IMG/VR virus record: IMGVR_UViG_640753024_000004
Coordinates: 1-16,173 of that record
Reading direction: 5' to 3' (one strand)
From: a virus
Taxonomy: Duplodnaviria > Heunggongvirae > Uroviricota > Caudoviricetes
DNA: 16,173 bases
Below are positions 1 to 16,173 of the stretch, piece by piece; the first letter of the stretch is position 1, and each line of letters opens with the position of its first letter. The translations under genes and the position numbers were made by a program. The notes below the pieces were generated by a model, which saw only the letters and a program-made list of their open reading frames with translations, was not told where the DNA came from and did no database searches.

Positions 1-996
1 TTATGGACGCATTATGGACATTCCTGACACCGGGTTAAGAGTCACAGCATCTTGTAAGAAATCCGGTGCAAAGTGTGCGTAGGTCATAGTTTGCTGAATG
101 TTAGAATGACCCAGGATGCGCTGCAATGTGATTATGTTACCTCCATTCATTATAAAATGTGTGGCAAATGTATGCCTCAAAACATGTACTGCTTGTCCGT
201 CAGGTAAATCGGGTTTTACTTCCCTGAGAGCGTTACGCACTTTGTAGTAACTGGCATTAAAAAGCCTGCCTGAATTTTTGGTCTTGATCCGTTTAATCAG
301 GTCCTGCGAAACGGGAATTGTCCTGCGTTTTCCGTTTTTAGTTTTCATAAACGTAACCATCTGGTTAATGATGTGTTCAGCTTTTAAATTAGACACTTCA
401 CTCCAGCGTCCACCAGTAGAAAGGCAGACCAGAGTTGCATTTAATTCATCACCATCAAGCATGGATAACAGCCGCGTAATCTCTTCACTGGACAAAAAAG
501 CCATTTCCGTAACAGCTTCACGTAACCGTTTAATCTCACGGAACGGGTTGTGGGAGTGGTATTCACCGGCGTCAATTAACTTGGTGAACATCCCGCTCAT
601 TATTGCCAGATGTCGATTTACGCTGGCTGGTTTTAGACCATCGTTCATCATTACAACGCGATAATCAGTTATCGTTTTCTTTGTTAGCTGGTCAGCTCTG
701 GACACTCCCATTTCTGCAAATTTGGCGATTATTGTCGTTAAACGCCCCCGTTCAATATCTCCACGCTCATGTGATTTTCCGTGATATATCCACCATCTAC
801 CTAACAACTCTGTAAGAGTTCGGCGGTCGGCTGGTTTCTCCAACCACTCTTTGTTGTGGTAGTTAACCAATACATGACGTTCGAATGCCTGAGCTTCACC
901 TTTAGTTTTAAATTTCCGCCTGATACGTTTTCCATCTGCACCCTGCGGTCTGACGTCCACTTCATAACGACCATCATCGAGCTTTTTAATAGACAT
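1..996 (-). CDS. int: Prophage tyrosine integrase (P2 Int-like), 331 aa
   Basis: Full ORF on the minus strand ending at the window edge. Position next to a leftward repressor gene matches the P2 int-C arrangement. Family assignment is from my reading of the translated sequence, not a search. Confidence 0.85.
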   Translation of the reverse strand: MSIKKLDDGRYEVDVRPQGADGKRIRRKFKTKGEAQAFERHVLVNYHNKEWLEKPADRRTLTELLGRWWIYHGKSHERGDIERGRLTTIIAKFAEMGVSRADQLTKKTITDYRVVMMNDGLKPASVNRHLAIMSGMFTKLIDAGEYHSHNPFREIKRLREAVTEMAFLSSEEITRLLSMLDGDELNATLVCLSTGGRWSEVSNLKAEHIINQMVTFMKTKNGKRRTIPVSQDLIKRIKTKNSGRLFNASYYKVRNALREVKPDLPDGQAVHVLRHTFATHFIMNGGNIITLQRILGHSNIQQTMTYAHFAPDFLQDAVTLNPVSGMSIMRP

Positions 997-1089
997 AAAG
1001 CCCTCCGATGACGCTGTTTACTTCTACTACTTGAAAATTAATGCAATTTTCTTTCGTACATTTACTACACACATATGCTGAATAAATCG

Positions 1090-1389
1090 TCAGCCAGTCT
1101 TCTGGTCTGAGTGGTGCAAGGTTGTTGAGTCTTGCCCAATGTGTGCGAGAGCCGGGGCTATTTGTCCAGCTGCTGGATCTGTTTCATCAAACATGAACCA
1201 GTCACGATACTTGCGAAAGCGTGGATGCTTAAACAGCTTCATACCTGCTTCCATAGGCATTTTTGATTTTCCTGATTCATATCCATGATATGTGTAGTAA
1301 TTAATTCCAATTAATTCAGCAAGTTCCTTAGTTTTAAGACGTTCGGATTCACGGATGAGCTTTAGTTTCTCACTTTGTTCACTTGACAT
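1090..1389 (-). CDS. C: Immunity repressor, P2 C-like, 99 aa from the ATG at 1389
   Basis: The ORF track starts at a TTG at 1407; the first ATG (1389) gives MSSEQSEKLK..., 99 aa, the length of P2 C. The C-terminal stretch GQIAPALAH..SGQKTG resembles what I recall of P2 C, while the N-terminal half looks different. A GGAG lies about 12 nt upstream of the ATG. Confidence 0.7.
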   Translation of the reverse strand: MSSEQSEKLKLIRESERLKTKELAELIGINYYTYHGYESGKSKMPMEAGMKLFKHPRFRKYRDWFMFDETDPAAGQIAPALAHIGQDSTTLHHSDQKTG

Positions 1390-1497
1390 AATTTTGCTAA
1401 TCTCCAATTATATTGCTACTTGGCAATTTGTGATTCACTCAAAAAGGCTCTAGATGGCTCCAGTTGGTGAATCGCAAATCTTATGGAGGATAGCAAA
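1390..1497. promoter_or_regulatory. Immunity switch region between the divergent C and cox-like genes, with a 13-bp inverted repeat (ATTTGTGATTCAC at 1426-1438, GTGAATCGCAAAT at 1467-1479)
   Basis: The inverted repeat (12 of 13 positions complementary, 28-bp spacer) is seen directly. Its role as operator and the presence of Pe/Pc-type promoters are inferred from P2/186 biology. Confidence 0.45.
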
Positions 1498-1854
1498 GTG
1501 ACGACAAATGTAGAAATTTCTTGTCCAACTAGCGATGAGGCAAGTTTCGAAAATGAAGCCAAACGTAAAAGCATTCAGATTTCAGAGCGCCCATCTGATT
1601 TGCTGTCGAAAGAAGGTTTTGCTCTTTACATCGGTAAGACACCACGCGCGGTGGCTGAAATGGCTAAAGCAGGAAAGCTGCCAGCCTTCTACATGACAGA
1701 CCCATTAAAACCAAGAGGGAAAGCTGAATTATGGATTAATCGCCGTGAGTGGGACAAGTACGCAGCCCAACTGGTTGATGAAGCTCCGACAGAATGGCAT
1801 GACTGGAAAAATCGCATTAGTTACAGCAAATCAAGACATGGCCGTGCGGCTTAA
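1498..1854 (+). CDS. cox: Cox-like excisionase / HTH regulator; start uncertain (GTG 1498 after GGAGGA, or ATG 1483)
   Basis: First rightward gene, opposite the repressor. The segment ...ALYIGKTPRAVAEMAKAGKLPAFYMTDP... follows the pattern I recall for P2 Cox. The product is longer than the 91-aa P2 Cox. Confidence 0.55.
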   Translation: MTTNVEISCPTSDEASFENEAKRKSIQISERPSDLLSKEGFALYIGKTPRAVAEMAKAGKLPAFYMTDPLKPRGKAELWINRREWDKYAAQLVDEAPTEWHDWKNRISYSKSRHGRAA

Positions 1855-1864
1855 GGTGGAAAGG

Positions 1865-2035
1865 ATGAATGAGCCTCGTTGTATTGCTCAGTTATTGCGT
1901 AACGAAAGCCCCAGGGCGATTGACTTCACCATCACCCACGGTAAGGGGCGTAAGGGAATCATTATCCGCACCAAAAAACAGAGTCCGTTAAAAAAGGCTC
2001 TGACCTTTCTGAAAAGCCGGAGGGTCTGGAAATGA
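1865..2035 (+). CDS. Small hypothetical protein at the P2 orf78 position; start uncertain (ATG 1865 after AAGGTGGAAAGG, or ATG 1838, or 1745)
   Basis: ORF in the rightward early operon. Its stop overlaps the next start as ATGA at 2032-2035. Confidence 0.4.
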   Translation: MNEPRCIAQLLRNESPRAIDFTITHGKGRKGIIIRTKKQSPLKKALTFLKSRRVWK

Positions 2036-2532
2036 CAGTGATGACGCTCAATCTCGTCGAAAAACAGCCAGCAGCTATGCGCCGGATAATTGGTAAGCAT
2101 CTTGCCGTCCCTCGCTGGCAGGATACATGTGATTATTATAATCAGATGATGGAGCGCGAACGGCTAACAGTTTGCTTTCATGCGCAGTTAAAACAACGTC
2201 ACGCAACGATGCGTTTTGAAGAAATGAACGACGTCGAACGTGAACGGCTGGTTTGTGCAATTGATGAACTGCGTGGGGCATTCTCAAAACGCCGTCAGGT
2301 TGGCGCAAGTGAGTATGCATATATTAGTTTTTTAACCGTCAGTCAGCGCCGTACTTTATTTATGCACGCACGACTGACAGAAAAAGAATTTAACCAGCCA
2401 TACTGGCGAATTAATGAAGAATCATGTTACTGGCGTGATGCTTTATTCCGTGCATTACGTGAATTATTCAGCCTGTTTGAGTATGCACCGACAATTCTGA
2501 CGTCGGTAAAACCAGAGCAATATCTGCATTAA
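2032..2532 (+). CDS. B: Replication protein B-like, 166 aa
   Basis: Called by synteny (after cox/orf78, before the small ORFs and gene A) and by its 166-aa length, which matches what I recall for P2 B. Sequence identity was not verified. Confidence 0.6.
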   Translation: MTVMTLNLVEKQPAAMRRIIGKHLAVPRWQDTCDYYNQMMERERLTVCFHAQLKQRHATMRFEEMNDVERERLVCAIDELRGAFSKRRQVGASEYAYISFLTVSQRRTLFMHARLTEKEFNQPYWRINEESCYWRDALFRALRELFSLFEYAPTILTSVKPEQYLH

Positions 2533-2595
2533 ATAATTAACCAGAGTTTTTAACGCACTTAATTGTGCGGGGTTTCTTTTTGCCTGGAGAAAGTC

Positions 2596-2820
2596 ATGCA
2601 TACAGTTTCTGAAAATCAGTGCGGTAAATACGCATTACTGCTGCAACAGGCCAGAACCGAAGCACAGGCCGACGCTGCGACGCGCTTTTCTTCTCATCTT
2701 GACGCCATGATTCGCCACATCACAAAGGCGGAGTTATCCCGCGTGGAGATAGTCGAGCTGCTCAGTCAGGAGTCGGAAAAATTTCACAATATCGGATTGT
2801 CTCGCGGGGAGGTGCTTTGA
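2596..2820 (+). CDS. Hypothetical early protein (P2 orf80 position), 74 aa from ATG 2596
   Basis: GGAGAAA lies upstream of ATG 2596; the track start at 2563 is a TTG. A short stem (CGCAC/GTGCG) with a T-rich tail sits just upstream at about 2553-2581. Confidence 0.5.
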
Positions 2821-3122
2821 TGTCCTGTTCTCGTTCAGTTGTATTACTGAATAACGCCTTAAAAATCACCGTTATGAAAAATGGCGATTTATCTCTTATT
2901 CAACTTGGTCTTGATAAAGAAAAACGCGAAATAACTGAGTCTGTTATCGCGATTTATCAGAACGAATTAAATCTCCTGTCTGATGTGGTCAATTTACTTG
3001 TTAAACGCGCTGTATTTCACAAGCAAATCTCCTCCGTGGATGAACTGACGAAATTAACGACAGAAATTGCCAGCTATTGCGCTGATGAATTTAAAAAACT
3101 TAACGACAAAAGGAGCTGGTAA
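2820..3122 (+). CDS. Hypothetical early protein (P2 orf81 position)
   Basis: ATG overlaps the previous stop (TGATG), suggesting translational coupling. An alternative start is ATG 2874 (MKNGDL...). Confidence 0.5.
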   Translation: MSCSRSVVLLNNALKITVMKNGDLSLIQLGLDKEKREITESVIAIYQNELNLLSDVVNLLVKRAVFHKQISSVDELTKLTTEIASYCADEFKKLNDKRSW

Positions 3123-3346
3123 TGCCGGACAACGTAGATTTTATTCAGGAACAACAGGCTGAATTACTGGAGCGTCAGATTAACGCGGCAAGGGTAAAAC
3201 ATTGCGGTGCTTCTGCGCTGGTTTGCGAAGAGTGTGACGCGCCAATACCTGCTGCCCGTCGTGCGGCTTATCCGTCAGCCACGCGTTGTGTTTCCTGCCA
3301 GTCAGTCTTTGAAGCAAAAAACAAACATTACCGGAGAACGGCATGA
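3122..3346 (+). CDS. TraR/DksA-family C4 zinc-finger protein (P2 orf82 position), 74 aa
   Basis: Two Cys pairs (C..C.EEC and C.SC). AGGAG is upstream and the start overlaps the previous stop as TAATG. Confidence 0.7.
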   Translation: MPDNVDFIQEQQAELLERQINAARVKHCGASALVCEECDAPIPAARRAAYPSATRCVSCQSVFEAKNKHYRRTA

Positions 3347-3618
3347 GTATTCGTATTGAAATTGGCGAACGTTATGTCGTTACCAGTGACAGCTTTCAGT
3401 TTATTCTCCACGAGAAAAAGAGAGCGGAAAGCGGTAAAAACGCCGGTCAGGAATGGCTGGCGGTGGTTGGTTATTATCCGAAATTAAGCCAGCTCGTTTC
3501 CGGCCTGATGCATCACGATATTCTGACCGGAAGCGCAAAGTCTTTTGCTGATTTAAACGCGCAGGTTGAGCAACTCAGCAGGCGTTGTTCAGAGGCTTTT
3601 GGCTCATATGGCCGTTAA
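3343..3618 (+). CDS. Hypothetical early protein (P2 orf83 position), 91 aa
   Basis: Start overlaps the previous stop (ATGA). Its stop overlaps the start of gene A. Confidence 0.55.
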   Translation: MSIRIEIGERYVVTSDSFQFILHEKKRAESGKNAGQEWLAVVGYYPKLSQLVSGLMHHDILTGSAKSFADLNAQVEQLSRRCSEAFGSYGR

Positions 3619-5884
3619 AGCCTCCGGGCGTTTTGTCCCTCCGTCAGCATTTGCCGCAGGCACCGGTAAGGCGTTTACCGGTGCTTATGCATGGAACGCG
3701 CCACGCGAGGCTGTCGGGCGCGAAAGACCCCTTACACGTGACGAGATGCGTCAGGTGCAAGGGGTTTTATCCACGATTAACCGTCTGCCTTACTTTTTGC
3801 GCTCGCTGTTTACTTCACGCTATGACTACATCCGGCGCAATAAAAGCCCGGTGCACGGGTTTTATTTTCTCACATCCACTTTTCAGCGTCGTTTATGGCC
3901 GCGCATTGAGCGTGTGAATCAGCGCCATGAAATGAACACCGACGCGTCGTTGCTGTTTCTGGCAGAGCGTGACCACTATGCGCGCCTGCCGGGAATGAAT
4001 GACAAGGAGCTGAAAAAGTTTGCCGCCCGTATCTCATCGCAGCTTTTCATGATGTATGAGGAACTCAGCGATGCCTGGGTGGATGCGCATGGCGAAAAAG
4101 AATCGCTGTTTACGGATGAGGCGCAGGCTCACCTCTATGGTCATGTTGCTGGCGCTGCACGTGCTTTCAATATTTCCCCGCTCTACTGGAAAAAATACCG
4201 TAAAGGACAGATGACCACGAGGCAGGCATATTCTGCCATTGCCCGTCTGTTTAACGATGAGTGGTGGACTCATCAGCTCAAAGGCCAGCGTATGCGCTGG
4301 CATGAGGCGTTACTGATTGCTGTCGGGGAGGTGAATAAAGACCGTTCTCCTTATGCCAGTAAACATGCCATTCGTGATGTACGTGCACGCCGCCAGGCAA
4401 ATCTGGAATTTCTTAAATCGTGTGACCTTGAAAACAGGGAAACCGGCGAGCGCATCGACCTTATCAGTAAGGTGATGGGCAGTATTTCTAATCCTGAAAT
4501 TCGCCGGATGGAGCTGATGAACACCATTGCCGGCATTGAGCGTTACGCCGCCGCAGAGGGTGATGTGGGGATGTTTATCACGCTGACCGCGCCGTCAAAG
4601 TATCACCCGACACGTCAGGTCGGAAAAGGCGAAAGTAAAACCGTCCAGCTAAATCACGGCTGGAACGATGAGGCATTTAATCCAAAGGATGCGCAGCGTT
4701 ATCTCTGCCATATCTGGAGCCTGATGCGCACGGCATTCAAGGATAATGATTTACAGGTCTACGGTTTGCGTGTCGTCGAGCCACACCACGACGGAACGCC
4801 GCACTGGCATATGATGCTTTTTTGTAATCCACGCCAGCGTAACCAGATTATTGAAATCATGCGTCGCTACGCGCTCAAAGAGGATGGAGACGAAAGAGGA
4901 GCCGCGCGAAACCGTTTTCAGGCAAAACATCTTAACCGGGGCGGTGCTGCGGGGTATATCGCGAAATACATCTCAAAAAACATCGATGGCTATGCACTGG
5001 ATGGTCAGCTCGATAACGATACCGGCAGGCCACTGAAAGATACTGCTGCGGCTGTTACCGCATGGGCGTCAACGTGGCGCATTCCGCAATTTAAAACGGT
5101 TGGCCTGCCGACAATGGGGGCTTACCGTGAACTACGCAAATTGCCTCGCGGCGTCAGCATTGCTGATGAATTTGACGAACGCGTCGAGGCTGCACGCGCC
5201 GCCGCAGACAGTGGTGATTTTGCGTTGTATATCAGCGCGCAGGGCGGGGCAAATGTCCCGCGCGATTGTCAGACTGTCAGGGTCGCCCGTAGCCCGTCGG
5301 ATGACGTTAACGAGTACGAGGAAGAAGTCGAGAGAGTGGTCGGCATTTACGCGCCGCATCTCGGCGCGCGTCATATTCATATCACCAGAACGACGGACTG
5401 GCGCATTGTGCCGAAAGTTCCGGTCGTTGAGCCTTTGACTTTAAAAAGCGGCATCGCCGCGCCTCGGAGTCCTGTCAATAACTGTGGAAAGCTCACCGGT
5501 GGTGATACTTCGTTACCGGCTCCCACACCTTCTGAACACGCCGCAGCAGTGCTTAATCTGGTTGATGACGGTGTTATCGAATGGAACGACACGGAGGTCG
5601 TGAGGGCGCTCAGGGGGGCATTAAAACACGACCTGAGAACACCAAATCGTCAGCAAAGAAACGGAAGCCCGTTAAAACCACATGAAATTGCACCATCGGC
5701 CAGACTGACCCGGTCGGAAAGAATGCAAATTACCCGTATCCGCGTTGACCTTGCTCAGAACGGTATCAGGCCGCAGCGATGGGAGCTTGAGGCGCTGGCG
5801 CGTGGCGCGACCGTAAATTATTACGGGAAATCTTTCAATTATCAGGTCGCTGATGAGTGGCCTGGATTTTTGTTACCCATTTGA
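3608..5884 (+). CDS. A: Rolling-circle replication initiator endonuclease gpA (HUH family), about 758 aa
   Basis: Contains the HUH-type active-site tyrosine motif GYIAKYISKNIDG. The whole protein matches my recollection of P2 gpA. ATG 3608 (MAVKASGRF...) is preferred over the in-frame TTG at 3566. Confidence 0.9.
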   Translation: MAVKASGRFVPPSAFAAGTGKAFTGAYAWNAPREAVGRERPLTRDEMRQVQGVLSTINRLPYFLRSLFTSRYDYIRRNKSPVHGFYFLTSTFQRRLWPRIERVNQRHEMNTDASLLFLAERDHYARLPGMNDKELKKFAARISSQLFMMYEELSDAWVDAHGEKESLFTDEAQAHLYGHVAGAARAFNISPLYWKKYRKGQMTTRQAYSAIARLFNDEWWTHQLKGQRMRWHEALLIAVGEVNKDRSPYASKHAIRDVRARRQANLEFLKSCDLENRETGERIDLISKVMGSISNPEIRRMELMNTIAGIERYAAAEGDVGMFITLTAPSKYHPTRQVGKGESKTVQLNHGWNDEAFNPKDAQRYLCHIWSLMRTAFKDNDLQVYGLRVVEPHHDGTPHWHMMLFCNPRQRNQIIEIMRRYALKEDGDERGAARNRFQAKHLNRGGAAGYIAKYISKNIDGYALDGQLDNDTGRPLKDTAAAVTAWASTWRIPQFKTVGLPTMGAYRELRKLPRGVSIADEFDERVEAARAAADSGDFALYISAQGGANVPRDCQTVRVARSPSDDVNEYEEEVERVVGIYAPHLGARHIHITRTTDWRIVPKVPVVEPLTLKSGIAAPRSPVNNCGKLTGGDTSLPAPTPSEHAAAVLNLVDDGVIEWNDTEVVRALRGALKHDLRTPNRQQRNGSPLKPHEIAPSARLTRSERMQITRIRVDLAQNGIRPQRWELEALARGATVNYYGKSFNYQVADEWPGFLLPI

Positions 5885-6150
5885 GTAAAAATGCAGCGTG
5901 ATTTTATATGCCTTTGAATGGATTATGCGAAGCGCCTCTAAGGCAGATGAGGAGCAATAGCATGCTGAAGTAGAAGGCTAAATTGTATTGAATCGCTAGC
6001 ATGTAATTTAAGGCAGCTATTTGATTCGAGTCATAAAAGAGCATCTATTTCGGCTAATAAAACCATTGCGAGTGACCTTTTGTCGAAGCATAATTCATCT
6101 CGAGCGAAGTCTTGCTAGTCTTTCATCGGAATGATGACAGGCGCAAAAAA

Positions 6151-6174
6151 ACCACCCTGGCAGGTGGTTTTTTT
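6151..6174. terminator. Bidirectional rho-independent terminator (ACCACC-CTGGC-AGGTGGT hairpin with an A-run before and a T-run after)
   Basis: Seen directly: aaaaaaACCACCctggcaGGTGGTttttttt. It lies downstream of gene A on the plus strand and downstream of the 37-aa ORF on the minus strand. Confidence 0.5.
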
Positions 6175-6186
6175 GTTTGAAGCATA

Positions 6187-6300
6187 TTAAAGAATAATAC
6201 TTACATGGATATTACTGACGTTTACTGACAAACCACTTGGACTACCATATGGATAGCCAAAGAGGGCCAGAACGAGAATGCAGTAATAGCACTTCTTCAT
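6187..6300 (-). CDS. Candidate 37-aa peptide MKKCYYCILVLALFGYPYGSPSGLSVNVSNIHVSIIL
   Basis: ATG preceded by AGGAGGAGAT on the minus strand. The stop sits 13 nt from the terminator hairpin. The N-terminus is hydrophobic. The ORF is not in the supplied track because it is too short. Confidence 0.35.
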   Translation of the reverse strand: MKKCYYCILVLALFGYPYGSPSGLSVNVSNIHVSIIL

Positions 6301-6872
6301 ATCTCCTCCTGTAAGCAGAGGGCAATTTCCGCCGATATATGCGCTTCTGAGGCGGAGTTACTATTTAGCGAAGTCTTGCCCTGAAATAATGCTCTGTTTA
6401 AACGCAAAGTGATCTGGCATATCACCGAACAGAGAGCCTGAACAACACAACATATAGTATGTCGTTGTTTCTGGTTGCATTTTATGTTGTGTAATACTGG
6501 TTTTGCATCAAGGATGTTTGAGCTTTTTTTGATATAGCTCAAAGTAAAAAGCAGGGACTACGGATGATAAGGTATTGAAAGCAATGTAAATTTTTTAAAG
6601 TTATTGGTGGCTAAAAAATGCACGGTTTCAATATGGCGGACTTAAATAAGCAATTAAAAAAGTCATAAATATCACTAAAATCATGGTGTTACGTTTTTTT
6701 TGTGGGAGCTGCGGTGACGCTTAAGTTGATTTGTCATTAAATAAGCCGTGCATGCAACAAGTGAATGTTTTTGCATGCGTCGGGGATGCCCGTTCCAGCT
6801 GCTCGCGGTCAGAGCTGGTGCGGATCCATAGTATCTATGCAACTGCATTAAAACCGCCACATGAAGCGGGCG

Positions 6873-6891
6873 GGCGAGGCGGGGAAAGCAC
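6873..6891. other. cos site: exact match to the P2/P4 19-nt cohesive-end sequence GGCGAGGCGGGGAAAGCAC
   Basis: The 19-mer is seen directly. Identity to the P2 cos sequence is from memory. The position (after the gene A region, before the portal gene) matches the P2 prophage map. Confidence 0.7.
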
Positions 6892-6934
6892 CGCGCGTAA
6901 GATAAACAGAAGAGCGAAGGATTATGGTTGAGTA

Positions 6935-6997
6935 TTTGTGTTTTTGTACATATGATAAAAAGGTGTTTACGCTTAAAAACACATCAAAGGAGATGAT
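6935..6997 (+). promoter_or_regulatory. AT-rich putative promoter and RBS (AGGAG about 6 nt before the ATG) of the ATPase cassette
   Basis: Contains TTGTGT/TTGTAC and TATGAT-like hexamers and an SD sequence. Exact -35/-10 assignment is unresolved. Confidence 0.3.
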
Positions 6998-8299
6998 ATG
7001 GAAAATATAAAGATTGATAAGTTTCTCACTATTCAAAAAGTTGATATTCCTCTTAAGAAAGTGAATATATTTATTGGGCCTCAGGCACAGGGGAAAAGTG
7101 TCATTGCAAAGCTAATAAAATATTTTAAAGATTATCCTATGGATATACTACGAGCTTCAACAGAGGGTAAAACTAAAAGAGATATATTGAAGGAGCAAAA
7201 GAATAAGTTTAGTAAAATTTTCCCTCAGCAGTATTGGGCTGATGATGAGTTTTTTATTGAGTATAGTAATAAGCACTATTGGGTGCGGATTACTAATCGA
7301 AAAAATAGCAAAGGGTCATTGAAAATAGACCTTTCTGAGAATTTAACGAAGACGATTGCTAAACTTCGTTTGATTGTACGAAAGGATTTAGATGAAAATA
7401 TTGAGAATTCACTTGCAGAAAGCGTTACGAGAAGACGTAAACGCGGAATTGAACATGAATTGCGAGTATGTCTTTCTCTAGGATTGTTTTCAGAACCAGA
7501 AACAAAGCTTGAAAGTGTTTTTTATATCCCCGCAGGGCGCTCTTTTTTTGCTAATTTGCAAAAAAATGTGTTTTCATTTTTATCCAGTAGTATAGAAATT
7601 GACTACTTTTTGACAGAGTTTGGTTCTCTGTATGAACAAACAAAAAAATTATTTAACCAAGATTACATGATTAGGATGCTTAGGGGGGCTGTGCCTCAAC
7701 ATGTTAATAAACTTGTGGAGGAGTTGATTTGCGGAAAATATATAACAGAAAAGGGTGAGGATTTTATTCGTCATGCTGCTAAGAAGACGAATCTTAACAA
7801 CTCGAGCTCAGGGCAGCAAGAAGCGTTACCAATGGCTTTAATGTTATCCTCATGGCCGTATTTACAGTCTGTGACTAGTAAGAGTTTTATTATTGAGGAG
7901 CCGGAGGCTCATCTGTTTCCTTCTGCCCAAGCAAAAGTTGTATCTTTAATAGCCTCAGCGTATAACCAAGCAGAAAGCTATTGTAGCTATACAATAACAA
8001 CACATAGTCCATATATTCTAAGTGCCTTCAATAATTTGATTCAAGCAGGTAATGCATTAAAGTGTATTAAGGGCAAGAATAATACCGATATCGAACGCTT
8101 ATATAAGCTTGTTCCAGAGTCTCAAATTATTGATTTTGATGATGTGACAGCTTATATGGTTAATGCTGGGAAAGTGACGGAAATACTGGATTCCGAACTA
8201 AATATATTAGATGCGAATGAAATAGATAGGATTTCCTCTATTTTTTCAGAGACTTTTGATGCATTGATTGATATCGAATATTCGGCTACTGTGAATTAG
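6998..8299 (+). CDS. ABC-type ATPase of the OLD/AAA_21-like class, 433 aa; cargo gene
   Basis: Walker A GPQAQGKS, ABC-signature-like SSGQQ, Walker B/D-loop FIIEEPEAHLFP, H-loop TTHSP. AT-rich codon usage unlike the prophage backbone. No C-terminal TOPRIM or nuclease domain is apparent. Confidence 0.85.
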   Translation: MENIKIDKFLTIQKVDIPLKKVNIFIGPQAQGKSVIAKLIKYFKDYPMDILRASTEGKTKRDILKEQKNKFSKIFPQQYWADDEFFIEYSNKHYWVRITNRKNSKGSLKIDLSENLTKTIAKLRLIVRKDLDENIENSLAESVTRRRKRGIEHELRVCLSLGLFSEPETKLESVFYIPAGRSFFANLQKNVFSFLSSSIEIDYFLTEFGSLYEQTKKLFNQDYMIRMLRGAVPQHVNKLVEELICGKYITEKGEDFIRHAAKKTNLNNSSSGQQEALPMALMLSSWPYLQSVTSKSFIIEEPEAHLFPSAQAKVVSLIASAYNQAESYCSYTITTHSPYILSAFNNLIQAGNALKCIKGKNNTDIERLYKLVPESQIIDFDDVTAYMVNAGKVTEILDSELNILDANEIDRISSIFSETFDALIDIEYSATVN

Positions 8300-8307
8300 G
8301 TGATTGA

Positions 8308-8745
8308 ATGTGTAAAAATTGCAAAGGAAAAACAAAAAATAAAATCATTGTGCTATCTGATAAAGGAACGTCAACGCAATTGTCAGTCACAAATGATAAT
8401 GAGTTGGAAGTTGAGCATAAGTTAATAGATGGTTGCGCTATTGTTGTTGGAGAGCGGTGTGATCATTATTTGAAGATTTATAACAATCAGGATGTTTCAC
8501 ATCTTTTTGTTGAACTTAAAGGAAGTGATGTTGAAAAAGCTGTTAAACAGATAGTGACAACTTTAAAGTCAGGTGTGATTAATGTAGGTGCTAAAGAAAA
8601 AAAACATGGTGCTATTGTTAGCACTAGGAATCCGCTAAACTCAACAGAAACCAATAGGTTAAAGAAGAAAATTCTTTTGAGTGACGGAGTGAATTTGCAT
8701 TTCTATAAAATGAAGGCGCAGCAAAAAATAACTTCTTTTACATGA
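8308..8745 (+). CDS. Small Cys-rich partner protein, 145 aa, of unknown function; possible nuclease-like effector
   Basis: Starts 9 nt after the ATPase stop with AGGTGA upstream, so it is an operon partner. Has CxxC (C2,C5) plus C43/C51, and a D52...E69-L-K71 arrangement that could be a PD-(D/E)xK-like core; the latter is speculative. Confidence 0.7.
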   Translation: MCKNCKGKTKNKIIVLSDKGTSTQLSVTNDNELEVEHKLIDGCAIVVGERCDHYLKIYNNQDVSHLFVELKGSDVEKAVKQIVTTLKSGVINVGAKEKKHGAIVSTRNPLNSTETNRLKKKILLSDGVNLHFYKMKAQQKITSFT

Positions 8746-8758
8746 AGTGTTCTCTTGT

Positions 8759-8782
8759 ACAGGCATGCATTTGCATGCCTGT
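8759..8782. terminator. Near-perfect palindrome ACAGGCATGCA-TT-TGCATGCCTGT after the cassette; possible terminator or protein-binding site
   Basis: 11-bp stem seen directly. The T-tail is weak (cttttac). Confidence 0.35.
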
Positions 8783-8848
8783 CGTGTAATCTTTTACACT
8801 ATATTTGTGTTGGTTCTAATCTTGTTATGTGTTTGTTTCGGTGATGGG

Positions 8849-9391
8849 TCATAATGAATAAGTTCGAAAGCGAAATACATCTTCGCCAACCCAACAGTTA
8901 ATTTCTTTACATCGCTCTTGGAGGAACGTTAGCTCGTTGCGTACAAAGACTTGTGCTGCTTTTGTTACATCTCCAAATCCTCCTGTGTTGTTGGGCATCA
9001 TTCCTATCATTTGGGGAGGCACGCGATGAGCACTCATTAGATCTTCAGCACTTGCTTTTTTGATATTAAAAAAATCGTCCTTCGTTGCCACTTCACTGAG
9101 CGGGATAATTTTAATGCCGTCGGCTTTCCCCTGTGGGGCATAGAGAAACAGATTTTTAAAGTTATTACGGCCTTTCGACTTAACCATGTTTTCGCGAAGC
9201 ATTTCGATATCGTTGCGATCCTGCACGGCATCGGTGACGTACATGATGTATCCGGCATGAGCGCCGTTTTCGTAATACTTGCGGCGGAACAGCGTGGCCG
9301 ACTCATTCAGCCAGGCAGAGTTAAGGGCGCTGAGATATTCCGGCAGGCCGTACAGCTCCTGATTAATATCCGGCTCCAGCAGGTGAAACAC
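8849..9391 (-). pseudogene. Q: Portal protein gene Q, 3' portion only (about 180 codons, C-terminal half)
   Basis: The translation matches what I recall of the C-terminal half of the P2 portal protein (P2 Q is about 344 aa). The reading frame has no plausible N-terminus and runs into the E/E' remnant. Confidence 0.75.
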
Positions 9392-9394
9392 GGA

Positions 9395-9647
9395 GCCGGG
9401 TGACCGAGCAGGAAGTCGCCGCGCTGGAACTGCCTGACCTTGTGGCGCTGGCCGGTAAGGTGGTCGGTTTTTTGTCGCCGAACTCGGTGCAGTGACGTTT
9501 CCGAAAAATCTCTCGGTCGATGACCTGATGGCGGATGTGGCAGTGATATTTCACTGGCCGCCATCAGAACTGTATCCCATGAGCCTGACCGAACTCATCA
9601 CATGGCGCGAAAAGGCGCTCCGGCGAAGCGGAAACACGAATGAGTAA
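9395..9647 (+). pseudogene. E: 3' remnant of tail chaperone genes E and E' (E frame to the stop at 9493-9495; E' extension frame to the stop at 9645-9647, overlapping the T start)
   Basis: Two overlapping frames: ...TEQEVAALELPDLVALAGKVVGFLSPNSVQ* and ...FFVAELGAVTFPKNLSVDDLMADVAVIFHWPPSELYPMSLTELITWREKALRRSGNTNE*, joined at a T6G slippery site. No start codon or 5' part is present. Confidence 0.6.
9468..9474 (+). other. Programmed -1 frameshift slippery sequence TTTTTTG of the E/E' pair
   Basis: T6G is seen where the E frame (GGT TTT TTG) and E' frame (TTT TTT GTC) overlap. A frameshift of this kind is established for the P2 E/E' tail chaperone pair. Confidence 0.5.
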
Positions 9648-10697
9648 CAATGTAAAATTACAGGTATTGCTCAGGGCTGTTGACCAGGCATCACGCCCGT
9701 TTAAATCCATCCGTACAGCGAGCAAATCGCTGTCGGGGGATATCCGGGAAACACAAAAATCACTGCGCGAGCTGAACGGTCAGACATCCCGTATTGAGGG
9801 ATTTCGCAAGACCAGTGCACAGCTCGCCGTGACTGGTCATGCACTTGAAAAGGCTCGGCAGGAAGCAGAAGCCCTTGCCACACAGTTTAAAAACACCGAA
9901 CGTCCGACCCGTGCTCAGGCGAAAGTGCTGGAATCAGCAAAGCGAGCGGCGGAGGACTTACAGGCGAAATATAACCGCCTGACGGATTCCGTTAAACGCC
10001 AGCAGCGGGAACTGGCCGCTGTGGGAATTAATACCCGCAATCTTGCACATGATGAGCAGGGACTGAAAAACCGTATCAGTGAAACCACCGCACAGCTTAA
10101 CCGGCAGCGCGACGCGCTGGCGCGTGTCAGTGCGCAACAGGCAAAACTTAACGCAGTCAAACAGCGTTATCAGGCCGGAAAGGAACTGGCCGGAAATATG
10201 GCCTCAGTAGGCGCTGCCGGTGTGGGGATTGCGGCGGCGGGAACGATGACCGGAGTTAAGTTGCTGATGCCCGGTTATGAGTTTGCGCAGAAAAACTCAG
10301 AATTGCAGGCCGTGCTCGGAGTGGCAAAAGACTCCGCCGAAATGACCGCACTACGCAAACAGGCGCGCCAGCTCGGCGACAATACCGCCGCCTCGGCGGA
10401 TGATGCGGCCGGTGCACAGATAATCATCGCGAAAGCGGGTGGAGATGCTGCGGCTATTCAGGCGGCAACGCCGGTCACGCTGAATATGGCACTGGCGAAT
10501 CAGCGGTCGATGGAAGAAAACGCGCAACTGTTGCTGGGGACTAAGGCATCCTTTCAACTGTCAAATGATGATGTCAGCCATGTGGGCGACGTGTTGTCGG
10601 CAACGATGAATAAGTCGGCGGCTGATTTTCAGGGGCTCAGTGATGCACTGACTTACCTCGGGCCGGTTGCGAGGACGGCGGGTGTAAGTCTTGAGCA
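9640..10697 (+). pseudogene. T: Tail tape-measure gene T, 5' part, interrupted by an IS21-family insertion
   Basis: Coiled-coil-like, Ala/Gln-rich N-terminal tape-measure sequence. The frame runs into the IS left end and stops at 10723-10725 inside the IS inverted repeat. Confidence 0.8.
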
Positions 10698-10750
10698 TGT
10701 CAGCGCCAATGATATAAGACAGTAATTCACCATTTGGATTGTCCGCTCCA
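10698..10750. repeat. IS21-family left terminal inverted repeat region
   Basis: Matches the right end in inverted orientation: terminal TGTCA(G/A)CGCCAA, then CCATTTGGATTGTCCGCT against CCATTTTTAATGTCCGCT. Confidence 0.6.
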
Positions 10751-10798
10751 CCCAACATGTTGTTTCCTTAAGGTTCCTACACCACAAAGGGAACACTC

Positions 10799-12765
<1,967 letters not shown>

Positions 12766-12767
12766 TG

Positions 12768-12822
12768 ACCAATAGCGGACATTAAAAATGGCGAAAAACG
12801 GCCAATAATCTTGGCGTTGACA
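12768..12822. repeat. IS21-family right terminal inverted repeat region (two AGCGGACA motifs, ends ...GTTGACA)
   Basis: Inverted match to the left end, seen directly. Confidence 0.6.
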
Positions 12823-14216
12823 AGCAGGCAGCGGCCATGACAGGTGTGCTGCATGACAATAACATCAGGGGGTCAATGGCGGGTACTGGTAGTAGTGCCG
12901 TTGTCACCCGATTACAGGCTCCGACAGGGAAAGCATGGGAAGCACTCAAAGAGCTTGGCGTTAAAACCTCGGACAAAAAGGGAAATATGCGTCCGTTGTT
13001 CACCATTCTGAAAGAGATTCAGGCCAGCTTTGATAAACACAAGCTGGGAACGTCTCAGAAGGGGGAATACCTTAAAACCATTTTTGGTGAGGAAGCCCTG
13101 AAATCAGCGAACGTTTTACTGGCAGCGGCTGCAAGCGGAAAACTGGATAAGCTGACCGCCACGCTGAAAGCCTCGGACGGTAAAACGGAAGAGCTGGTTA
13201 AAATCATGCAGGATAACCTCGGCGGTGACTTTAAGGAGTTTCAGTCTGCTTATGAGGCGGTGGGGACTGACCTGTTTGACCAACAGGAAGGCGCACTGCG
13301 TAATCTCACGCAGACGGCCACAAAGTATGTGTTAAAACTCGACGGCTGGATCCAGAAAAACAAATCACTGGCGTCAACCATCGGCCTTATTGTCGGTGGC
13401 GCACTGGCGCTTATTGGCATCATCGGTGCAATTGGTCTTGTAGCCTGGCCGGTTATCACCGGCATTAATGCCATCATCGCGGCAGCAGGCGCAATGGGGG
13501 CAATCTTCACGACGGTTGGCAGTGCTGTTATGACGGCCATCGGGGCGATTAGCTGGCCGATTGTGGCTGTGGTGGCCGCCATTGTCGCCGGGGCGTTGCT
13601 TATCCGTAAATACTGGGAGCCTGTCAGCGCATTCTTTGGTGGTGTGGTTGAAGGGCTGAAAGCAGCATTTGCGCCGGTGGGGGAGCTGTTCTCGCCACTG
13701 AAACCGGTGTTTGACTGGCTGGGCGAAAAGTTACAGGCCGCGTGGCAGTGGTTTAAAAACCTGATTGCCCCGGTCAAAGCCACCCAGGACACCCTGAACC
13801 GTTGCCGTGATACTGGCGTCATGTTCGGGCAGGCACTGGCTGACGCGCTGATGCTGCCGCTTAATGCGTTCAACAAACTGCGCAGCGGTATTGACTGGGT
13901 ACTGGAAAAACTCGGCGTCATCAACAAAGAGTCTGACGCACTTGACCAGACTGCCGCCAGAACTCATGCCGCCACGTATGGCACAGGTGGTTATATTCCG
14001 GCGACCAGCTCTTATGCAGGCTATCAGGCTTACCAGCCGGTCACGGCACCGGCTGGTCGCTCTTATGTGGACCAGAGTAAAAACGAATATCACATCAACC
14101 TGACGGGCGGTACTGCGCCGGGGACACAGCTTGACCGCCAGTTACAGGATGTGCTCGAAAAATACGAGCGGGATAAACGTGCGCGCGCCCGTGCCAGCAT
14201 GATGCATGACGGTTAA
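12823..14216 (+). pseudogene. T: Tail tape-measure gene T, 3' part
   Basis: Removing the IS and one AGCA copy rejoins the frame as ...GVSLEQAAAMTGVLHDNNIRGSMAGTG..., giving about 816 codons, close to the length I recall for P2 gpT. Contains a hydrophobic Gly/Ala-rich central segment typical of tape-measure proteins. Confidence 0.8.
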
Positions 14217-14230
14217 GGAGGTAACGAAAA

Positions 14231-14710
14231 ATGATGCTCGCGTTAGGTATGTTTGTTTTTATGCGCCAGACGCTGCCACACCAGACCATGCAGCGTGAAT
14301 CAGATTATCGCTGGCCGTCAAATTCCCGTATCGGCAAACGGGATGCCTTTCAGTTTCTCGGTGCGGGTGAGGAAAACATCACGCTTGCCGGTGTGCTTTA
14401 TCCTGAACTGACCGGCGGAAAGCTGACGATGACCACGCTCAGACTGATGGCAGAGGAAGGCCGGGCGTGGCCGTTGCTGGATGGCACCGGCATGATTTAC
14501 GGCATGTATGTCATCAGCAAGGTGAGTGAAACAGGGAGTATTTTCTTTGCAGACGGCACACCCCGGAAAATTGATTTTACGCTGTCGCTCACCCGCGTTG
14601 ATGAATCACTGGCCGCGCTTTATGGCGATATCGGTAAACAGGAGGAATCGCTCATCGGTAAGGCTGGCAGTATGGCGACTAAATTCACGGATATGACGGG
14701 GGCGGGATAA
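14231..14710 (+). CDS. U: Tail protein gpU-like, 159 aa
   Basis: Synteny T-U-D-ogr, AAGGAGG upstream, and a length matching what I recall for P2 gpU. Confidence 0.75.
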   Translation: MMLALGMFVFMRQTLPHQTMQRESDYRWPSNSRIGKRDAFQFLGAGEENITLAGVLYPELTGGKLTMTTLRLMAEEGRAWPLLDGTGMIYGMYVISKVSETGSIFFADGTPRKIDFTLSLTRVDESLAALYGDIGKQEESLIGKAGSMATKFTDMTGAG

Positions 14711-15873
14711 TGCTGGATGCACTGACATTTGATGCAGGCAGTACGCTGACGCCGGATTACATGCTGATGCTCGACAGCAGGGATATTACCGGCAATATCA
14801 GCGACCGTCTGATGAGTATGACCCTGACGGATAACCGGGGCTTTGAGGCTGACCAGCTTGATATTGAACTGAACGATGCCGACGGGCAGGTCGGGCTGCC
14901 GGTTCGTGGCGCTGTCCTGACGGTGTATATCGGCTGGAAAGGTTTTGCCCTGGTATGCAAAGGGAAATTTACCGTTGATGAGGTTGAACACCGGGGCGCA
15001 CCGGATGTGGTCACCATCCGCGCCCGGAGTGCAGATTTTCGCGGGACGCTCAATTCCCGCCGGGAAGGCTCCTGGCATGACACCACGCTCGGTGCGATTG
15101 TTGAGGCGATAGCCACCCGTAACAGGCTGGAAGCCAGTGTCGCTCCGTCACTGGCCGGAATTAAAATCCCGCACATCGACCAGTCGCAGGAGTCCGATGT
15201 GAAATTCCTGACCCGTCTTGCTGAACGCAACGGCGGCGAGGTGTCGGTAAAAATGGGAAAACTGCTGTTTCTCAAAGCGGGGCAGGGGGTGACGGCCAGC
15301 GGTAAAAAAATCCCGCAGATCACCATCACCCGCAGCGACGGTGACCGTCATCATTTTGCGATTGCTGACCGTGGAGCCTATACCGGCGTAACGGCAAAGT
15401 GGCTTCACACCAAAGACCCGAAGCCGCAAAAGCAGAAGGTAAAACTGAAACGCAAAAAGAAAGAGAAACACCTGCGCGCACTGGAGCACCCGAAAGCGAA
15501 ACCAGTCACGCAGAAGAAAGCGCCAAAAGTACCGGAAGCGCGCGAAGGTGAATGCATGGCCGGTGAGGCTGACAACGTTTTTGCCCTGACCACGGTATAT
15601 GCCACGAAAGCGCAGGCCATGCGCGCCGCTCAGGCGAAGTGGGATAAGCTGCAACGGGGCGTGGCGGAGTTCTCCATCAGCCTGGCTACCGGTCGGGCAG
15701 ATATTTACACGGAAACACCGGTCAAAGTGTCAGGCTTTAAGCGCGTCATAGACGAGCAGGACTGGACAATCACTAAGGTGACACATTTTCTGAATAATAG
15801 CGGCTTCACGACGTCCTTAGAGCTTGAGGTCAGGCTTTCTGATGTGGAGTACGAAACAGAAGATGATGAGTGA
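14710..15873 (+). CDS. D: Tail protein gpD-like, 387 aa
   Basis: Start overlaps the U stop (ATAATG). Synteny and length match P2 gpD as I recall it. Has a Lys-rich central linker. Confidence 0.8.
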   Translation: MLDALTFDAGSTLTPDYMLMLDSRDITGNISDRLMSMTLTDNRGFEADQLDIELNDADGQVGLPVRGAVLTVYIGWKGFALVCKGKFTVDEVEHRGAPDVVTIRARSADFRGTLNSRREGSWHDTTLGAIVEAIATRNRLEASVAPSLAGIKIPHIDQSQESDVKFLTRLAERNGGEVSVKMGKLLFLKAGQGVTASGKKIPQITITRSDGDRHHFAIADRGAYTGVTAKWLHTKDPKPQKQKVKLKRKKKEKHLRALEHPKAKPVTQKKAPKVPEAREGECMAGEADNVFALTTVYATKAQAMRAAQAKWDKLQRGVAEFSISLATGRADIYTETPVKVSGFKRVIDEQDWTITKVTHFLNNSGFTTSLELEVRLSDVEYETEDDE

Positions 15874-15954
15874 TGTTTTTATTTTATCTGTTTGTTTTAT
15901 AAGGATAAATTAACTAGAATGGCACCATCAACAAAACCGGAAGAGGTGCTCGCG

Positions 15955-16173
15955 ATGTTTCATTGTCCTTTATGCCAGCATGCCGCACATGCGCGTACAA
16001 GCCGCTATATCACTGACACGACAAAAGAGCGTTATCACCAGTGTCAGAACGTGAATTGCAGCGCCACGTTCATCACTTATGAGTCGGTACAGCGATACAT
16101 CGTGAAACCGGGAGAAGTCCACGCCGTAAGGCCGCACCCGTTGCCGTCAGGGCAGCAAATTATGTGGATGTAA
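15955..16173 (+). CDS. ogr: Late-gene transcriptional activator Ogr (Cys4 zinc finger), 72 aa from MFHCPLCQH...
   Basis: CPLC...CQNVNC zinc-finger motif; the sequence matches my recollection of P2 Ogr. The track start at 15892 is probably too far upstream. Confidence 0.9.
   Translation: MFHCPLCQHAAHARTSRYITDTTKERYHQCQNVNCSATFITYESVQRYIVKPGEVHAVRPHPLPSGQQIMWM

Follow-up and report, generated by a model that had tools for sequence, protein, structure and literature searches.

A conserved mobile module with a predicted RNA-regulated peptide gene between gene A and cos of a P2-like prophage

What fills the space between replication gene A and the cohesive-end site (cos) of a P2-like prophage when the genes known from that place in P2 are missing? 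In P2, orf91, tin and old occupy the interval. We analysed a 16,173-nucleotide (nt) stretch of viral DNA (IMG/VR record IMGVR_UViG_640753024_000004, positions 1 to 16,173; hereafter, the window), which is a defective P2-like prophage. Its early operon ends with gene A (3566-5884; PF05840, E 3.7e-124), and the interval in question lies between the gene A stop codon and cos (5885-6872; cos at 6873-6891). BLASTN of window positions 5500-9500 against P2 (NC_001895, joined across cos) found no match to orf91, tin or old in 5885-6843. The only matches were the 3' end of gene A (to 5868), 54 nt at cos (6844-6897) and a fragment of gene Q (9048-9400).

An earlier note on this DNA had described a prophage without tin and old, in which the interval was AT-rich and had no long open reading frame (ORF) but carried a strong bidirectional terminator, a short ORF with a ribosome-binding site (RBS) and local repeats. 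Each of these descriptions was confirmed. The guanine-plus-cytosine (GC) content was 40.5%, compared with 53.4% in gene A. The longest ORF, of 81 amino acids (aa) (6297-6542, minus strand, TTG start), was rejected as a gene, as it contains stop codons or frameshifts in homologues. The other features (terminator, short ORF and an exact direct repeat of 13 nt) are described below. The implication that only leftovers of earlier cargo remain was not supported: terminator, ORF and repeats form one coherent unit under purifying selection, also present on plasmids and on a Citrobacter contig. Because this coherent, selected unit moves independently (Klebsiella plasmids, Citrobacter contig), the module is itself cargo. 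Judged from its conservation, the interval is not debris but a compact, conserved, mobile module. We regard it as probable, though well short of certain, that this module is a type I toxin-antitoxin-like system of a new family, with a par/Fst-like layout, a TimP-like peptide and a promoter homologous to that of nrdDG.

The peptide gene and its convergent small RNA

The features that make up the two predicted transcripts are as follows, in window coordinates.

6187-6300, minus strand: ORF of 37 codons (stop codon included in the coordinates) encoding MKKCYYCILVLALFGYPYGSPSGLSVNVSNIHVSIIL, with a signal-anchor-like N-terminus
6303-6309, minus strand: Shine-Dalgarno (SD) sequence GGAGGAG, predicted to be sequestered by an upstream GCCCUCU
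6392-6434, minus strand: leader hairpin with outer stem CUCUGUU/AACAGAG and inner stem GGUGAU/AUCACU
6144-6472, minus strand: predicted peptide mRNA of about 329 nt, comprising a 172-nt leader, the ORF and the terminator; start inferred from nrdDG homology; folding z-score -2.7
6144-6175, no strand assigned: shared bidirectional intrinsic terminator, A7-CCACC-loop-GGTGG-T7, with arms at 6144-6156 and 6163-6175 (13/13 complementary)
6066-6094, plus strand: predicted small RNA (sRNA) promoter of sigma-70 type from a promoter scan, TTGCGA-17 nt-CATAAT
6101-6177, plus strand: predicted antisense sRNA of about 77 nt, with a 5' seed (nt 2-16), a variable middle hairpin and the terminator
6367-6380, minus strand: predicted sRNA target GGCAAGACUUCGCU at mRNA nt 93-106, 66 nt upstream of the AUG; second copy of the direct repeat
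6021-6034, plus strand: near-palindrome TTGATTCGAGTCAT, about 73 nt upstream of the sRNA start, matching the FNR consensus at 8/10 positions

We compared the ORF among variants of the module. It has 37 codons in every variant compared, and the variant peptides include MNRWCLCILVLTLFGYPIGGQSGWSVNVSHVNISIFL (plasmid), MNKWHYCILVLALFGYPTGSQSGWSLTVSHISISFIM (Citrobacter) and MKRLYGCILVLTLIGYPVGSQSNWSVSISQVSLSINL (the metagenome copy L066). The pairwise ratio of nonsynonymous to synonymous substitution (dN/dS) was 0.12-0.37, and dS between clades was 0.8-1.4, with synonymous sites near saturation. Variable sites were distributed 12/11/26 over the three codon positions, the third being dominant. By these measures the ORF is a real gene under purifying selection. 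From a basic N-terminus, the encoded peptide continues through about 11 hydrophobic residues that end in LFG and a turn rich in Pro and Gly to a tail in which polar and hydrophobic residues alternate. Its grand average of hydropathy (GRAVY) is 0.7-0.9, and the N-terminal 15 residues are hydrophobic. Searches of Pfam and NCBIfam with the window peptide and the plasmid variant gave no match at E up to 10. The exact peptide sequence is present in protein databases only as 'hypothetical protein'. Literature searches for the peptide string, for the seed sequence and for type I toxin-antitoxin systems in P2-like prophages found no paper in the library searched.

The leader of the predicted mRNA is structured. 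All 13 pairs of the leader hairpin are retained in 11 variants, with compensatory changes from UA to CG in L066 and from AU to GC in Citrobacter. A consensus hairpin also covers the SD sequence, and two of its pairs carry compensatory changes. We considered a mok-like leader ORF starting at an AUG in the loop of the leader hairpin (6418-6420, minus strand) and rejected it, as it is not conserved. In E. coli prophage variants, this AUG opens a 19-codon frame that closes just past the sRNA target. Since the AUG is absent from the plasmid and Citrobacter variants, it probably does not mark a leader ORF.

The terminator is nearly invariant across variants. A consensus terminator scan did not list it because its A and T runs belong to the stem. 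The two predicted transcripts converge on this terminator and would overlap across it by about 34 nt. For the sRNA promoter, TTGCG, CATAAT and the 17-nt spacing are conserved across variants, and the sequence of the spacer is variable. A transcript starting near 6101, about 7 nt past the promoter, would carry one repeat copy at its extreme 5' end. The predicted sRNA has a minimum free energy of -31.9 kcal/mol (z-score -5.05), and the fold of seed, hairpin and terminator is present in 10/10 variants. The sequence of the middle hairpin differs by clade with the fold kept, including five compensatory pairs among seven variants. The near-palindrome upstream is kept as TTGA(T/C)-N4-GTCAT in the plasmid and Citrobacter variants and may be a regulator-binding site for the sRNA promoter.

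The 13-nt direct repeat, AGCGAAGTCTTGC, occurs at 6103 and 6367. Any exact 13-mer repeat was found in only 30 of 2000 shuffled sequences (1.5%). The sequence GCAAGACTTCGCT is invariant in both copies in the window, in L002, L003 and L007, in the plasmid loci L004 and L005, and in Citrobacter. The searches that yielded these variants used BLAST, the hairpin pattern or the peptide pattern, and not the seed. The two copies are the most conserved non-coding blocks of the module. They allow the 5' end of the sRNA to form a contiguous duplex of 14-18 bp with the leader in 10/10 variants, always 63-66 nt upstream of the AUG. At the edge of this duplex, outside the search pattern, one pair varies: four variants have C-G, two have U.G and one has U-A.

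A promoter homologous to that of nrdDG and a proposed mechanism

In 5,425 of 5,426 E. coli genomes, the intergenic region between nrdD and treC has a match to a 53-nt segment of the window. In the alignment with the region upstream of nrdD, window positions 6502-6619 correspond to L006 (MG1655 4462869-4462986), and the match continues through the -10 hexamer, about 120 bp in all. The homology ends at the transcription start. Compared with the published 54-nt nrdDG promoter oligonucleotide (PMC10425943), 46/54 positions are identical, including 44 of the first 45. By this homology the peptide mRNA would start at about 6471-6472. The promoter elements are as follows.

6529-6542, minus strand: FNR site 2-like sequence TTGAGCTATATCAA, 9/10 to TTGAT-N4-ATCAA, with its centre 64.5 nt upstream of the inferred start
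6498-6511, minus strand: FNR site 1-like sequence TTGATGCAAAACCA, spaced 31 bp from site 2 and with its centre 33.5 nt upstream of the inferred start
6479-6484, minus strand: -10 hexamer TAAAAT, aligned with the nrdDG TAAAAT; TAAAAT or TAGAAT in all variants
6445-6460, minus strand: NrdR-box-like palindrome ATACTATATGTTGTGT in the early leader, with 11/16 identity to nrdDG NrdR box 2 ACCCAATATGTTGTAT; not in L066

The nrdDG promoter has FNR sites centred at -64.5 and -33.5 (PMC10425943). The window thus has the two sites at the same positions and spacing, upstream of the -10 hexamer. Its site 2 differs from that of nrdDG, TTGAGCTACATCAA, at 1/14 positions, and TTG-N8-TCAA is invariant in 11/11 variants. 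Site 1 has the position and spacing of nrdDG site 1, TTGATGCAAAGCAC; in the plasmid, Citrobacter and L066 variants its sequence is TTGATGCAAATCAC. These variants also have an NrdR box 1, CACTATATATAG, identical or near-identical to that of nrdDG (oligonucleotide in PMC12176259). The window lacks the pair of NrdR boxes at 15-16 bp spacing, its box 1 being degenerate, and its box 2-like element lies 25 bp from the box 1 position, compared with 15 bp in nrdDG. The box 2-like palindrome also pairs with 6483-6492 as a 5' hairpin. From the alignment, the mobile element appears either to have captured a core-genome promoter or to share ancestry with it. The homology predicts FNR-dependent anaerobic transcription of the peptide mRNA, and NrdR may act in the plasmid variants.

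On the reading that we favour, the nrdDG-like, FNR-activated promoter would drive the minus-strand mRNA of about 329 nt, whose long structured leader would hide the SD sequence. The peptide would probably insert into the inner membrane and be harmful when made in excess. The constitutive-looking sigma-70 promoter on the opposite strand would produce the convergent sRNA of about 77 nt, ending at the common terminator. Pairing at the leader site, and across the terminator, could block a ribosome standby site or a structural-activation site, or could trigger cleavage of the duplex. As the sRNA would pair 63-66 nt from the AUG and no upstream ORF is conserved, one of these mechanisms would be the likely one, and direct occlusion of the RBS is unlikely. 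The peptide would be held off for as long as the sRNA is made. Loss of the sRNA supply, through loss of the element or shut-off of host transcription, would release translation.

Several properties expected of a type I system are found here. The locus has a gene for a small (<60 aa), hydrophobic, membrane-directed protein; an adjacent predicted gene, identified computationally, for a complementary small RNA; and an mRNA predicted to be self-restrained by its sequestered SD sequence and 172-nt leader. The structure of the locus is well supported by the comparisons made here. Its toxicity, regulation and role are proposals, and a number of points weigh against the type I reading. Both RNAs are predicted, and their 5' ends were placed by homology and by promoter consensus. 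The peptide's size and hydrophobicity, together with the layout of the locus, are the grounds for assuming toxicity, and the peptide has no match to any known toxin family in Pfam or NCBIfam. The middle hairpin of the sRNA would form on the opposite strand too. Because the diversity sampled is shallow (about 5-6 clades), the formal covariation count for the seed-target duplex gave a single compensatory pair, which is not above the shuffle control. The case for pairing therefore rests on the invariance of both repeat copies set against near-saturated synonymous sites. Finally, the E. coli prophage variants, the window among them, have a degraded FNR site 1 and NrdR box 1, and the module may therefore be regulated differently from nrdDG here.

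The alternative that survives best, possible if somewhat unlikely, is that the ORF encodes a non-toxic small membrane protein tuned by the sRNA. It could serve superinfection exclusion or anaerobic physiology, as a regulated lysogenic-conversion gene. The ORF, the sRNA and their pairing support this equally well, and the nrdDG-like promoter suggests conditional physiological expression. TimP, the closest analogue of the peptide, is toxic only on overexpression, and its native level permits growth (PMC7667032). However, a sequestered SD sequence with a distant antisense site is the typical design of a tightly repressed toxin mRNA (PMC11228461), and a self-contained unit of 570 bp, found on conjugative plasmids as well as in a phage defence hotspot, fits selfish addiction or abortive infection better than a host-adaptive gene.

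It is very unlikely that the sRNA is the main product, acting in trans on mRNAs of the host or of competitor phages, with the peptide mRNA as one target or as a sponge; this would be compatible with the type I reading. Its invariant seed at the extreme 5' end resembles that of many trans-acting sRNAs, and prophages are known to encode such sRNAs. Against this, no other target was found, though none was looked for; every replicon that carries the seed also carries its cis-linked target; and the ORF itself is under selection.

Distribution of the module and its place beside cos

The extent of the module and its surroundings in the window are as follows.

6021-6593, no strand assigned: mobile module core, the extent common to prophages, Klebsiella plasmids and the Citrobacter contig
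5885-6020, no strand assigned: P2-lineage-specific spacer from the gene A stop codon to the module, common to P2-like carriers and not found on plasmids
6594-6843, no strand assigned: spacer from the module to the cos flank, of which 6594-6619 extends the nrdD-upstream homology and 6594-6691 is common to other carriers
6844-6897, plus strand: cos region, comprising the 19-nt cohesive end (6873-6891) and its left flank, with 94% identity to the P2 right end and cos

We searched complete E. coli genomes with megablast. The interval was present in 182 of 5,426 genomes, in 147 of them nearly full length, at 85-99.7% identity. As the adjoining 3' end of gene A was found in about 1681 genomes, roughly 1 in 10 E. 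coli P2-like prophages carry the interval. Among the E. coli genomes and plasmids listed, no RefSeq annotation was seen beneath it.

The module also occurs outside P2-like prophages. The plasmid loci L004 and L005 align to window positions 6021-6593 with 73-74% identity (BLASTN). In all, 419 plasmid records, 392 of them from Klebsiella, contain the central 520 bp, aligned over 97-99% of its length at about 74% identity. In 388 plasmid records the match spans 80% or more of 6040-6560. The Klebsiella carriers are mostly large conjugative IncF/IncHI1B plasmids with gene neighbourhoods unrelated to P2. They include pGN-2, from a liver-abscess isolate, and neighbouring genes include a RES-domain gene, an Mla-like transporter and an IS3-family element.

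In species-representative genomes, the back-translated peptide pattern detected the module on one Citrobacter contig, and the leader-hairpin pattern found nothing; the family therefore appears to be rare among species representatives. The ORFs flanking the Citrobacter copy had no above-threshold Pfam match, only a sub-threshold match to DUF6364. A pattern scan of IMG/VR added 26 P2-like contigs with the module. Scanning metagenomes with the seed-pair pattern gave 40 matches, of which 28 were true copies; we discarded the other 12 as unrelated tandem repeats or chance matches. The most divergent copy, L066 (metagenome contig Ga0308168_1016994, soil or other, 2484-2841), lacks the 5' leader hairpin and the box 2-like element. 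It keeps NrdR box 1, FNR site 2, the leader hairpin, the seed pair and the 37-codon ORF.

That the interval is decayed, non-functional DNA left by cargo turnover, with its ORF, repeats and terminator being relics or products of chance, is highly improbable. The AT-rich composition, the lack of a long ORF, the defective state of the prophage itself and the empty RefSeq annotation in the genomes listed are all in keeping with decay. It is contradicted by the purifying selection on the ORF, by the conserved promoters and hairpins and by the occurrence of the module on plasmids and in P2-like phages that are intact. Neither seed copy varies despite an inter-clade dS of about 1, a value that also argues against very recent copies.

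The earlier note had named plain conservation as P2 backbone as the finding that would overturn its view, and alignment did not reveal it. The module is absent from P2, and among sequenced phages only three records contain the interval: Salmonella phage MET_P1_103_31 and one 'P2' assembly (two accessions). A cis-acting backbone part (an early-operon terminator or an accessory site for packaging or replication) would agree with the strong internal terminator and with the constant position right after gene A and near cos in prophages, but it is exceedingly improbable given this absence from P2, the copies away from any P2 genes (on Klebsiella plasmids and in a Citrobacter contig of non-P2 context), and a count of only about 150-180 E. 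coli genomes with the module among about 1681 with the gene A 3' end.

We next compared 31 related P2-like loci. The module always lies about 560 nt past the end of gene A, whatever other cargo is present. The order module-cos-Q, with no other cargo, was found in at least 8/31 loci; module-cos-cargo-Q in about 11/31, including the window; and module-cargo-cos-Q in about 6/31. Compared across loci, this arrangement shows a constant module beside a changing protein cargo. The module is the sole cargo of the hotspot in about one in four of the carrier prophages examined. The earlier note's view of the A-Q region as a turnover hotspot was borne out, and so was its idea that cargo may lie on either side of cos. 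Because variable cargo is inserted on either side of cos, the hotspot has two insertion points, one between the module and cos and one between cos and the portal gene Q.

As the earlier note had also suggested, the protein cargo of the window lies on the far side of cos. It is a two-gene unit (6998-8745; 34% GC) encoding a 433-aa AAA_15/AriA-like ATPase and a 145-aa partner. The best PADLOC matches of this cargo are A (E 1.9e-31) and B (E 1.6e-4) of the candidate defence system PDC-M29. The cohesive end itself, GGCGAGGCGGGGAAAGCAC, is that of P2; this 19-nt sequence is present as a single copy in the window, and the Salmonella phage record OQ383618 terminates precisely at the equivalent of window position 6891.

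The remainder of the window is as follows. The integrase gene (1-996) and the C repressor gene (1090-1407) are on the minus strand. A 46-aa ORF (5904-6044, minus strand) overlaps the spacer between gene A and the module. The right part of the prophage (8849-16173) is defective: of the portal gene only a fragment is present (8849-9391, minus strand), and the terminase, capsid and most tail genes are gone. The tape-measure gene is interrupted by an IS21-family element (istA/istB, 10799-12765), with gpU and gpD downstream.

Surveys of defence hotspots in P2 and P4 are protein-centred, count gene arrangements and deal with protein systems alone (PMC9122126, PMC13586616). Because the 570-bp module is mostly unannotated, loci that carry it look empty or are credited to neighbouring genes. 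If the module is a working type I pair, it would be a new family in enterobacteria whose layout has until now been characteristic of par loci in Gram-positive bacteria. It would also tie transcription of a toxin to the FNR, and possibly the NrdR, circuit, which would be a new kind of trigger, and it would be a candidate determinant of stability or phage exclusion on about 400 large Klebsiella plasmids.

A more specific proposal, which we consider distinctly unlikely, is that of an RNA-controlled abortive-infection or addiction device. Its toxin gene would be wired to an anaerobic and deoxynucleotide (dNTP)-sensing circuit through the nrdDG-type promoter, with its FNR sites and, on plasmids, intact NrdR boxes. 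In the anoxic gut the toxin mRNA would be transcribed but kept silent by a short-lived sRNA. A competing phage, by shutting off host transcription or perturbing the dATP/ATP pools, or loss of the plasmid or prophage would then let the membrane peptide kill the cell. If this were true, an unannotated defence or maintenance system, invisible to protein-based hotspot surveys, would be present in about 10% of the P2-like prophages of E. coli and on hundreds of plasmids of Klebsiella, some of them from invasive isolates.

Comparison with known systems

We compared the module with known type I systems and with the other loci that it resembles. In layout, it is closest to par (Fst/RNA I-RNA II) of Enterococcus faecalis pAD1. 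In par, as predicted for the module, a toxin mRNA and an antisense RNA converge on one bidirectional terminator, a direct repeat in the DNA gives complementarity between the 5' regions of the sRNA and the mRNA, and pairing can involve the repeat and the terminator (PMC8167048). The window has all three elements of this layout, that is, convergent genes, a common terminator and repeat-derived 5' complementarity. Fst has about 33-37 residues with a hydrophobic segment, as does the module peptide. Homology with Fst or Ldr was not detected, with no Pfam match of the peptide at E up to 10. Unlike par, the module is hosted by a Gram-negative enterobacterium and has one repeat pair instead of DRa and DRb. 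Its target lies 63-66 nt upstream of the AUG, whereas that of par is near the initiation region. The hydrophobic segment of the module peptide is N-terminal and signal-like, and its tail is polar and beta-like, not charged as in Fst.

The peptide most resembles TimP of the timP/timR pair (ryfA locus of Salmonella and E. coli), with a signal-anchor-like segment and positive N-terminal residues. TimP is an inner-membrane peptide of 38-41 residues with an uncleaved, signal-anchor-like N-terminus and an unfavourable Leu at -3 (PMC7667032, PMC11228461). The two N-termini are weakly similar, MK..C.CI(L/V)(V/L)(L/I). This similarity is marginal: the ungapped score gave P 0.005-0.02 against composition- and region-preserving shuffles (four variants), and local BLOSUM alignment gave P 0.2. 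The timP mRNA also has a structured leader, of about 145-170 nt, and its sRNA pairs far upstream of the RBS (PMC7667032, PMC11228461), as proposed for the module. Homology to ryfA/timR was examined and rejected, as there were only chance-level short matches to K-12 ryfA/timR and no match to the Rfam RyfA family (RF00126) at E up to 10. The arrangements also differ: timR lies upstream in divergent orientation, and the sRNA gene of the module lies downstream in convergent orientation. The timPR locus is fixed in the chromosome, whereas the module is found on phages and plasmids.

The pairs tisB/istR-1, zorO/orzO, shoB/ohsC and dinQ/agrB share with the module a complementarity of about 14-20 nt in a long 5' untranslated region, well upstream of a sequestered SD sequence. 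The distant pairing site of the module fits the standby-site logic set out in PMC8167048. In these four pairs the sRNA is divergent and there is no common terminator; in the module it is convergent with one, and an nrdDG-type promoter takes the place of LexA/SOS control. An Rfam search of 5600-7200 at E up to 10 returned only sub-threshold matches to RNAI, the Phe leader and OrzO-P, driven by the terminator hairpin; the best, OrzO-P, scored 17.5 bits compared with a gathering score of 60. For Hok/Sok, Ldr/Rdl, Ibs/Sib, TisB/IstR, ShoB/OhsC, ZorO/OrzO and SymE/SymR, no match came near a gathering score in Rfam, and none was found in Pfam or NCBIfam at E up to 10.

With the nrdDG promoter, which is activated by FNR and repressed by NrdR, the module shares both FNR sites at their 31-bp spacing and the -10 hexamer. 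The gene controlled is different, a 37-codon ORF in place of ribonucleotide reductase, and the distance to the box 2-like element is greater by one helical turn. With P2 tin/old and the other protein cargo of the A-Q (TO) hotspot, it shares the location beside cos (PMC9122126). The module is not homologous to that cargo and would instead represent an RNA-regulated micro-gene at the same site.

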